Shown: positions 39,070 to 39,488 of the stretch, piece by piece
Position numbering within the stretch: position 1 is the first letter of the stretch
How the letters are laid out: every line of letters starts with the position of its first letter
Source: Escherichia coli
GTDB lineage: Bacteria > Pseudomonadota > Gammaproteobacteria > Enterobacterales > Enterobacteriaceae
DNA length: 64,000 bases
Direction: 5' to 3' (one strand)
Assembly: GCF_050920415.1 (NCBI RefSeq)
Contig: NZ_CP169309.1
Translations under genes and position numbers: made by a program
Notes under the pieces: model-generated
The model's input: the letters and a program-made list of their open reading frames with translations, nothing else
What the model was told of the DNA's origin: nothing
The model's database searches: none

Positions 39070-39488
39070 CTAAAGTCTCCAAAAAATTATTATCGGCAAT
39101 GTCGAAACTTGCCGTTATATCTGCCACCGGAACGGGGTAACAGAGTTTATGTTTTCCCAGGGCGACCGTATCCTGCCGGAAGCGCTGGTTATTCACAATC
39201 GATTTAACACACCATTTACATTAAATTTTAGTGCTCAGCGATACTATTTTTCATCAGGTTGCACTCCCTCACATTTTTTGCGGTTGCACCTTTCAAAAAT
39301 GTTAACTGCCGCAGAGAAAAAGTCTGAGTTATTTTTTTAATCCCTGTCATATCGATTTCTTTTATTAACATTTCATTCATTTTTAAGCTTGCTACGCAGG
39401 TCACATTTAACATGGTTGCACAAAGTTGCAACATCATGGATATTTCACGATAACGTTAAGTTGCACCTTTCAGAACAACAGGAGTAAT
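39070..39488. promoter_or_regulatory. put control region (divergent putP / putA promoters with PutA operators)
   Basis: several GTTGCA motifs (near 39262, 39284, 39414, 39424, 39459) match the known PutA operator half-site. Confidence 0.65.

Follow-up and report, generated by a model that had tools for sequence, protein, structure and literature searches.

The region considered here belongs to a window of 64,000 nucleotides of Escherichia coli (NCBI RefSeq assembly GCF_050920415.1, contig NZ_CP169309.1); all coordinates refer to this window, the given strand being called plus. It is the spacer between the divergent genes putP and putA, and the locus comprises:

37561-39069, minus strand: putP, the sodium/proline symporter gene (502 aa), assigned by its ORF and by NCBIfam equivalog NF011948
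39070-39491: put control region, the divergent putP-putA intergenic spacer, 422 bp with 38.9% G+C
39492-43454, plus strand: putA, the trifunctional enzyme-repressor gene (ORF of 1320 aa), NCBIfam equivalog NF008772
39492-39647, plus strand: codons 1-52 of putA, the domain that binds DNA, of the ribbon-helix-helix (RHH) type, by phmmer against 2gpe, 2rbf and 2ay0 (E about 1e-30)

Both gene assignments lie well above the NCBIfam cut-offs, with 1139 bits for the PutP equivalog (cut-off 955) and 2657 bits for that of trifunctional PutA (cut-off 1750). The start codon of putA is the ATG at 39492 (MGTTTMGVKL..., MGTTTMGVKLDD...); an ATG at 39487 is out of frame, and the protein start remains 39492 even if the program-made ORF list runs the putA frame upstream to a TTG at 39426. 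A sequence-only reading of this DNA had described a divergent control region of 419 bp at 39070-39488; it rightly recognised the putP-putA intergenic space, ending it 3 bp short of its true limit (39491, 422 bp), an immaterial difference. The DNA is that of E. coli: a 631-bp query around the put region is matched at an identity of at least 95% in 5420 of 5426 complete E. coli genomes. The window comes neither from K-12 nor from the best-matching strain, EC42405, in which the put region is 100% identical, the flanking DNA being only 98-99.5% so.

A motif scan of 39070-39491 finds GTTGCA exactly five times on the plus strand, at 39258, 39283, 39415, 39425 and 39460, all five thus having the same orientation, namely the sense of putA. 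A sixth match, on the minus strand at 39427-39432, is an overlap within the palindrome GTTGCAAC of the fourth site. The count agrees with the "at least five" motifs that had been noticed from the letters of the divergent region, and the adjacent pair ggttgcacaaagttgcaac singled out on that occasion is located at 39414-39432. Successive sites are 25, 132, 10 and 35 bp apart, and the base following the hexamer is C in four of them (GTTGCAC) and A in the remaining one (GTTGCAA). According to the ORFs, to NCBIfam and to the annotation of K-12 and EC42405, the sites lie between a divergent putP and a trifunctional putA bearing an RHH domain. Together with the elements that they adjoin, they are:

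39228-39254, minus strand: ymdG uORF in the putP leader, 8 codons, MKNSIAEH (MKNSVAEH in K-12), K-12 annotation b4737
39258-39263, plus strand: operator 1 (caGGTTGCACtc), standing, on the putP-sense strand, between the ymdG uORF's ATG and the Shine-Dalgarno-like GAGGGAG
39283-39288, plus strand: operator 2 (gcGGTTGCACctttca)
39415-39420, plus strand: operator 3 (atGGTTGCACaa), overlapping the putative putA -35 element TTGCAC (39416-39421)
39425-39430, plus strand: operator 4 (aaAGTTGCAAca), 10 bp, i.e. one helical turn, past operator 3 and in the spacer of the putative putA promoter
39439-39444, plus strand: GATATT, putative -10 hexamer of putA, 17 bp downstream of the TTGCAC of operator 3 and invariant in 71 sequences
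39460-39465, plus strand: operator 5 (taAGTTGCACctttca), in the putative putA 5' UTR, with 32 bp from it to the putA ATG

From operators 1 and 2 it is some 190-215 bp downstream to the ATG of putP.

The same locus is found in E. coli K-12 (operators 1-5; PDB 2RBF), with identical sites and an identical RHH domain, the K-12 control region differing from the window by five SNPs in the spacer. The alignment with K-12 MG1655 is free of gaps and holds 5 substitutions in 481 columns, at window positions 39156, 39242, 39267, 39399 and 39472. A motif scan combined with an alignment to K-12 is the check that had been suggested along with the sequence-only reading, and its outcome is favourable: all five motifs occupy their K-12 positions (1079111, 1079086, 1078954, 1078944 and 1078909 of NC_000913.3), and no SNP falls in a hexamer or in its flanking three bases. 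Operators 5 and 2 have 13 nt in common (GTTGCACCTTTCA), the SNP at 39472 being the one that renders the flank of operator 5 identical to that of operator 2 over this length. On the protein side, residues 1-66 of PutA are the same as in K-12 and include the crystallised domain that binds DNA. Residues 1-52 match the RHH chain of the DNA complex 2RBF with E = 6e-31 (phmmer), and the cognate repressor domain is therefore intact, Lys9 included.

Zhou et al. 2008 (J Mol Biol 381:174) reportedly mapped five GTTGCA operators in E. coli K-12, of which three are said to be needed for the repression of putA and two for that of putP. The same work is said to describe a crystal complex on operator 2, in which the protein contacts 9 bp, and a tuning of affinity by the flanking bases through Lys9. 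I take operator 2 of the window to be the site crystallised with PutA52 in PDB 2RBF; likewise, the one-to-one match to the published operator numbering is presumed from the sequence identity with K-12. Gel shift, mutagenesis and a crystal structure were the main means of defining the operators of K-12, so that "footprinted operators", as the sequence-only reading called them, is loose wording. PutA also binds oligonucleotides bearing single sites.

A scan of a genome collection with the first 200 residues of PutA retrieved 80 Enterobacteriaceae loci, 78 of them extending as far as the start of the divergent putP. In 77 of these 78 species operators 1-4 are exact, the sole exception being E. 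whittamii (L006), in which operator 3 is altered. The spacing is kept as well: 25 bp between operators 1 and 2 in 76 of 77 species and 10 bp between operators 3 and 4 in 77 of 77, the distance from operator 2 to operator 3 ranging from 130 to 136 bp. In an alignment of 71 enterobacterial put regions, the columns of operators 1 to 4 agree with the window at identities of 1.00, 1.00, 0.998 and 1.00, respectively, the rest of the spacer averaging 0.67. The invariant blocks are AGGTTGCACT at operator 1, GGTTGCAC(C) at operator 2 and GGTTGCACAAAGTTGCAACAT at 39414-39434, covering operators 3-4; the base conserved across species on the 3' side of the hexamer is C. As judged from this comparison, purifying selection on operators 1-4 is strong and their spacing is fixed, a pattern expected of protein-binding sites.

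Operator 5 is not conserved outside Escherichia, and the evolutionary support, as far as sequence comparison goes, is therefore limited to four of the five sites. Over its columns the identity is 0.30, and exact copies are confined to E. coli and its close relatives within Escherichia; within the 78-species comparison it is absent in E. albertii, Salmonella, Citrobacter, Klebsiella and the remaining genera. In E. coli itself, operator 5 is essentially fixed, 5374 of 5426 complete genomes (~99%) having a 30-mer that contains it. It seems to have been gained specifically in the Escherichia lineage, where it would provide a further block on the downstream side of the putA start. Some other genera have one extra exact site, either in inverted orientation near -42 or -102 or as a direct copy at -103. 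A universal fifth operator was considered and rejected, extra exact sites numbering 0.31 per region where the background is 0.20, which is about the chance rate.

The put region of Salmonella enterica (L014, L015) is a case in point. It is likewise divergent, with a spacer of ~420 bp and operators 1-4 exact and equally spaced, yet there is no GTTGCA at the position of operator 5; instead, an inverted TGCAAC is found ~105 bp upstream of putA, and the ymdG uORF is missing from the region. The Salmonella put control region is said to have been studied by Hahn et al. 1988 and by Ostrovsky de Spicer and Maloy.

Other explanations of the hexamers have to be weighed against this evidence. That their clustering is due to chance, or to the composition of an AT-rich spacer, might be argued from the window as a whole, in which GTTGCA is not enriched (55 matches vs 53.5 expected), and from a looser cluster of four GTTGCA in mixed orientation inside ycdZ (20780-21141). 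The density outside the put region, however, leads one to expect 0.33 matches per 422 bp on both strands, for which the Poisson probability is ~1e-6 for six or more matches and ~2e-7 for five on one strand. When the region was shuffled 20,000 times with its dinucleotides preserved, six matches were never reached and five were reached twice; the hexamer is the commonest of the region, as is GGTTGCAC among its octamers. With the same positions and spacings being met across 77 species, a chance origin of the cluster is refuted. A more specific proposal is that the hexamers are operators of CytR, built of repeats of the octamer GTTGCATT and combined with CRP, which would make the region a member of the CytR/CRP regulon and not a target of PutA control. 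The CytR half-site consensus GTTGCATT does include GTTGCA (PMC3013702), and the region has a few weak CRP-like matches, the best of which is TGCTACGCAGGTCACA at 39390-39405 with 2 mismatches. The resemblance, however, ends with the hexamer: the TT extension is found in 0 of 5 sites, the next base being C (four) or A (one) and the C being conserved across species. The arrangement differs as well, for octamers of CytR are repeated ~2 bp apart, and no such repeats occur in the put region, with its spacings of 25, 132, 10 and 35 bp. Matches to the CRP consensus number 201 in the window vs about 225 expected, without enrichment. Control by CytR is thus very improbable.

Two further alternatives concern what the DNA encodes or initiates. 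In most E. coli genomes the RefSeq annotation (PGAP) covers operators 1-4 with a 69-aa "hypothetical protein", WP_000979515.1 (39228-39437, minus strand), so that the hexamers might be incidental codons of this gene. Its last eight codons, which are ymdG, are indeed translated (PMC6001520; bioRxiv 10.1101/511675). Against a longer product, start-site profiling places the beginning of translation at the 8-codon ymdG (bioRxiv 10.1101/511675), and over the 78 species the longest minus-strand ORF of the equivalent region varies from 16 to 82 aa, with differing frames and stops. Only the N-terminal MLQLCAT is common across species, and this is nothing but the opposite-strand reading of operators 4 and 3; moreover, conservation is block-like at the operators and lacks codon periodicity. 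The coding explanation is hardly credible, and the gene call in thousands of E. coli genomes is, on these comparisons, very probably a mis-annotation save for its last eight codons. A better case can be made for the conserved TTGCA(C) strings being -35 elements (TTGACA-like) of several promoters and not repressor sites. The TTGCAC of operator 3 sits 17 bp before the invariant GATATT and so probably serves as a -35 element too; as TTGCA(C) resembles a -35 hexamer, promoter function could account for some of the conservation seen at operator 3. The other sites do not fit: operators 1, 2, 4 and 5 are not followed by any -10-like hexamer 16-18 bp on along the same strand, conservation reaches the 5' G and the full GTTGCAC, which is more than a -35 element requires, and every site faces putA, though two of them stand at the putP end. 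A pure -35 function is plausible for operator 3 and is not so for the other sites; as an account of the whole set it is improbable, if less so than the alternatives discussed above.

TTGCAC and GATATT are accordingly proposed, from their sequence and distance, as the -35 and -10 elements of putA. If they form the promoter, the putA start site would be near 39450, and operator 5 would extend from about +10 to +15. A consensus promoter scan of the region did not call this promoter; it gave only one weak minus-strand candidate, ATGAAA-18-TAAAAT at 39254-39225, no better than shuffles. On the putP side, promoter hexamers could not be placed from the sequence, a candidate TTAACA at 39305-39300 having no good -10 at 16-18 bp. 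The ymdG uORF, present only in Escherichia in the cross-species comparison, begins 4 bp downstream of operator 1, with GAGGGAG on the other side of the operator; its codon 5 is changed from Val in K-12 to Ile here by the SNP at 39242. Expression of ymdG has been detected by tagging (PMC6001520), and a re-mapping of its start has given the 8 codons (bioRxiv 10.1101/511675). Because ymdG and the Shine-Dalgarno-like GAGGGAG would be carried on the mRNA, the putP transcript should start upstream of about 39272, which would put operator 1 within the first transcribed part of the leader and leave operator 2 at the promoter or next to it.

The five direct repeats of GTTGCA are thus best regarded as the PutA operators of the E. 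coli put control region, a reading to which I would assign a probability of about 95%. The link to the autoregulation of putA and putP by the RHH domain of PutA had already been drawn in the sequence-only reading; it finds support in the identity with K-12, in the intact RHH domain, in the conservation of the sites and in the literature. The PutA operator array is already known, and that interpretation is right and ordinary.

PutA represses putA and putP via operators between both genes, and proline-driven reduction of its flavin causes it to leave the DNA for the membrane (PMC5293562; PMC5879082). At the present locus, the N-terminal RHH domain would dimerise PutA, and its two-stranded beta-sheet would enter the major groove at each hexamer and at a few flanking bases. 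PutA on operators 3-5 would block RNA polymerase at putA, operators 3 and 4 overlapping the putative -35 element and spacer and operator 5 lying just downstream of the putative start. Operators 1 and 2 would be placed at the start of a long putP leader, around the ymdG uORF, where their occupancy is expected to repress putP; here, PutA might either occlude the promoter or act as a roadblock. Upon reduction of FAD by proline, PutA would move to the membrane and off the DNA, whereby both putA and putP would be derepressed. In this scheme binding, repression and the redox switch are taken from the literature, and the promoter positions are those proposed above.

Among related systems, the PutA45-DNA complex of Pseudomonas putida (PDB 2JXG/2JXH/2JXI) has a homologous RHH domain (E = 3e-20) and is said to recognise the same GTTGCA core; P. 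putida belongs to a different bacterial family, and the likeness established here is one of RHH domain sequence only. Chains of the CopG family give weak sequence matches to the PutA domain (E = 2e-4). In MetJ (at its met-boxes), Arc, CopG and NikR, a beta-ribbon in the major groove likewise reads short operator units, and units about one helical turn apart let neighbouring dimers share one face of the DNA. Unlike the operators of these repressors, the PutA sites are asymmetric direct repeats spread over ~200 bp. PutA also differs from other RHH repressors in being fused to a membrane-associating enzyme of 1,300 residues and in its release, which is driven by cofactor reduction and not by a small-molecule corepressor.

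The main finding re-identifies a textbook case of a metabolic enzyme repressing its own gene and as such matters little. Its use is that of a positive control, the put operators indicating that real operator arrays can be recognised from raw sequence by a first-stage reader. What is new is peripheral only and consists of the distinction between a four-site core and the fifth site, of the probable mis-annotation and of a candidate RNA element. As to the first, the cross-species footprint parts an ancient four-site core, with its 25-bp and 10-bp spacings, from the Escherichia-specific fifth site. In open full-text literature no paper describing GTTGCA operators together with PutA was found, the only hit being the CytR octamer (PMC3013702), and a search of open-access literature on the put promoter and on the putP leader or mRNA returned nothing relevant for enterics.

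The candidate RNA element lies in the putP 5' leader, which holds strongly conserved blocks, and stands downstream of the ymdG uORF:

39121-39143, minus strand: RNA hairpin of the putP 5' leader, CUGUUACC-CCGUUCC-GGUGGCAG, 8 bp, predicted by RNAalifold

The prediction was obtained with RNAalifold from a 29-genus alignment. Compensatory double changes are seen in 6 of its 8 pairs; 93.9% of the cells are paired, as compared to 76% in shuffles, and double-change cells number 49 vs 15, the observed values being attained by 0 of 500 shuffles. Sliding the register of the hairpin cuts the pairing to 27-51%. The loop and the closing pairs, CGUUCCGG (39134..39127), are invariant across Enterobacteriaceae, and the stem covaries between genera. 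Two G-U pairs occur in the E. coli hairpin, in keeping with an RNA of putP sense. Folded as a single sequence, the leader does not significantly exceed shuffles in stability (z = -1.04), and the hairpin is for this reason supported by covariation and not by folding energy. Rfam 15 gave no match at E <= 1 on either strand of 38800-39800.

A K-12 Term-seq 3' end at 1079260 corresponds to window position 39114, 45 nt upstream of the putP ATG (PMC7815308), and thus sits 7 nt past the hairpin. This 3' end was classed as neither Rho-dependent nor intrinsic and flagged as uORF-associated, with an intrinsic-terminator score of 1.14 (<3) and a Rho score of 1.08 (PMC7815308). The hairpin itself does not look like an intrinsic terminator or attenuator, AUAUAAC being the sequence that follows it, and a terminator scan found none there.

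An open-access search returned no description of the putP leader hairpin, the subscription literature lying outside its scope. To my knowledge, neither a control element in this leader nor the Escherichia-specific operator 5 has been described. The hairpin is a candidate element for the post-transcriptional control of proline uptake, and it may point to a second layer of control, additional to the known operators and situated in the putP 5' leader; the suggestion is a tentative one, with the odds running somewhat against it. The apparent gain of operator 5 in Escherichia is a related point. The hairpin could be the binding site of a protein or sRNA setting putP translation or leader stability, or else a stable sRNA might arise from the leader, with the hairpin as its 3' structure.

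As a side observation on the same 29-genus alignment, a second hairpin at 39114-39094 also appears to covary when judged by eye.

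The 5' leader of putP, which is transcribed away from putA across the put control region, contains a conserved hairpin:

39121-39143, - strand: conserved hairpin in the putP 5' leader, CUGUUACC-CCGUUCC-GGUGGCAG

Compensatory changes are found at six of its eight stem pairs in a comparison of 29 genera, while CGUUCCGG of the same hairpin is unchanged throughout the species aligned. An RNA 3' end mapped in K-12 by Term-seq corresponds to window position 39114, 7 nt downstream of the hairpin (PMC7815308 supplement). No Rfam family matches the hairpin.

Closer to the gene, a further stem-loop precedes the putP start codon (ATG) by 25 nt:

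39094-39114, - strand: second putP leader hairpin, CGGCAA-GUUUCGACA-UUGCCG

The arms of this second hairpin appear to covary between genera, as judged by eye on an alignment that is gappy at the hairpin; the arm pairs are GACAA/TTGTC, CAGCC/GGCTG and CAACC/GGTTG.

Farther from putP, in the leader or promoter area, the conservation is of sequence:

39160-39220: two sequence-conserved blocks, read on the putP strand as TGTAAATGnTGTGTTAAATCGnTTGTGAA and GCTTCCGGCAGGATACGGTCGCCC

Despite that conservation, no covariation was seen in the blocks in the cross-species alignment. The GCTTCCGGCAGGATACGGTCGCCC block contains a second copy of the TTCCGG found in the loop of the 39121-39143 hairpin. A promoter or an RNA element could account for the two blocks, as could a site bound by protein.

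The GTTGCA operators of the repressor PutA, numbered 1 to 5 from the putP side, differ in their distribution across lineages. Operator 5 (39460-39465) is confined to the Escherichia lineage: about 99% of E. coli genomes have it, so that it is fixed in the species, and it is missing from E. albertii and from every other genus sampled; E. whittamii (locus L006), for its part, lacks an exact operator 3. Among the loci compared (L004-L083), several clades carry a single extra GTTGCA site elsewhere:

about -42, inverted: Pluralibacter-like taxa
about -102, inverted: Salmonella, Kluyvera and E. albertii
-103, direct: Pseudocitrobacter

The spacer sequence closest to a CRP site also resembles, in part, a PutA site:

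39390-39405: TGCTACGCAGGTCACA, top CRP-like match in the spacer, with two mismatches

Its left half, TGCTAC, is an inverted PutA hexamer with one mismatch, and E. albertii, Salmonella and Kluyvera have TGCAAC in its place; its right half, GTCACA, is highly conserved, as is the TTTAACA that follows.

Two reading frames are annotated or known over the operator region:

39228-39437, - strand: WP_000979515.1, a 69-aa 'hypothetical protein' (RefSeq/PGAP annotation)
39228-39254, - strand: the uORF ymdG, MKNSIAEH in the window versus MKNSVAEH in K-12

The former, which most E. coli genomes carry as an annotation over operators 1-4, has probably been called as a gene in error: the ORF is not conserved, its length in other species being anything from 16 to 82 aa; its conserved N-terminus, MLQLCAT, is the opposite-strand reading of operators 4 and 3; and the only known translation within it is that of the final 8 codons, namely ymdG. 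Found only in Escherichia, ymdG has frequent, unrelated 8-codon counterparts in Citrobacter (MLSTLDQx) and in Klebsiella/Raoultella (MKFGxxxx), which start about 7 nt further downstream, and in Salmonella no uORF of this kind was found in the putP leader. The position of these 8-codon uORFs, rather than their sequence, may be what is kept.

On the putA side, a published Term-seq 3' end (K-12 1078854, window ~39520, + strand; PMC7815308 supplement) lies 28 nt into the putA ORF and has a large number of reads in one of the conditions. It adjoins a short CATGG...CCATG inverted repeat spanning the putA start codon.

The window strain carries an intact efeU:

36511-37350, - strand: efeU, intact 279-aa ORF

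In K-12, efeU is a frameshifted pseudogene. The gene is annotated as functional in EC42405, an E. coli strain whose put region is identical to that of the window. Elsewhere, a 362-bp stretch (20780-21141) inside the ycdZ coding sequence holds four GTTGCA matches of differing orientation, a cluster compatible with chance, as about 0.2 such clusters are expected by a rough estimate. Around the tRNA-Ser region (~23650-24420), some 300 bp of the window are repeated or rearranged relative to EC42405, as shown by overlapping BLAST segments.
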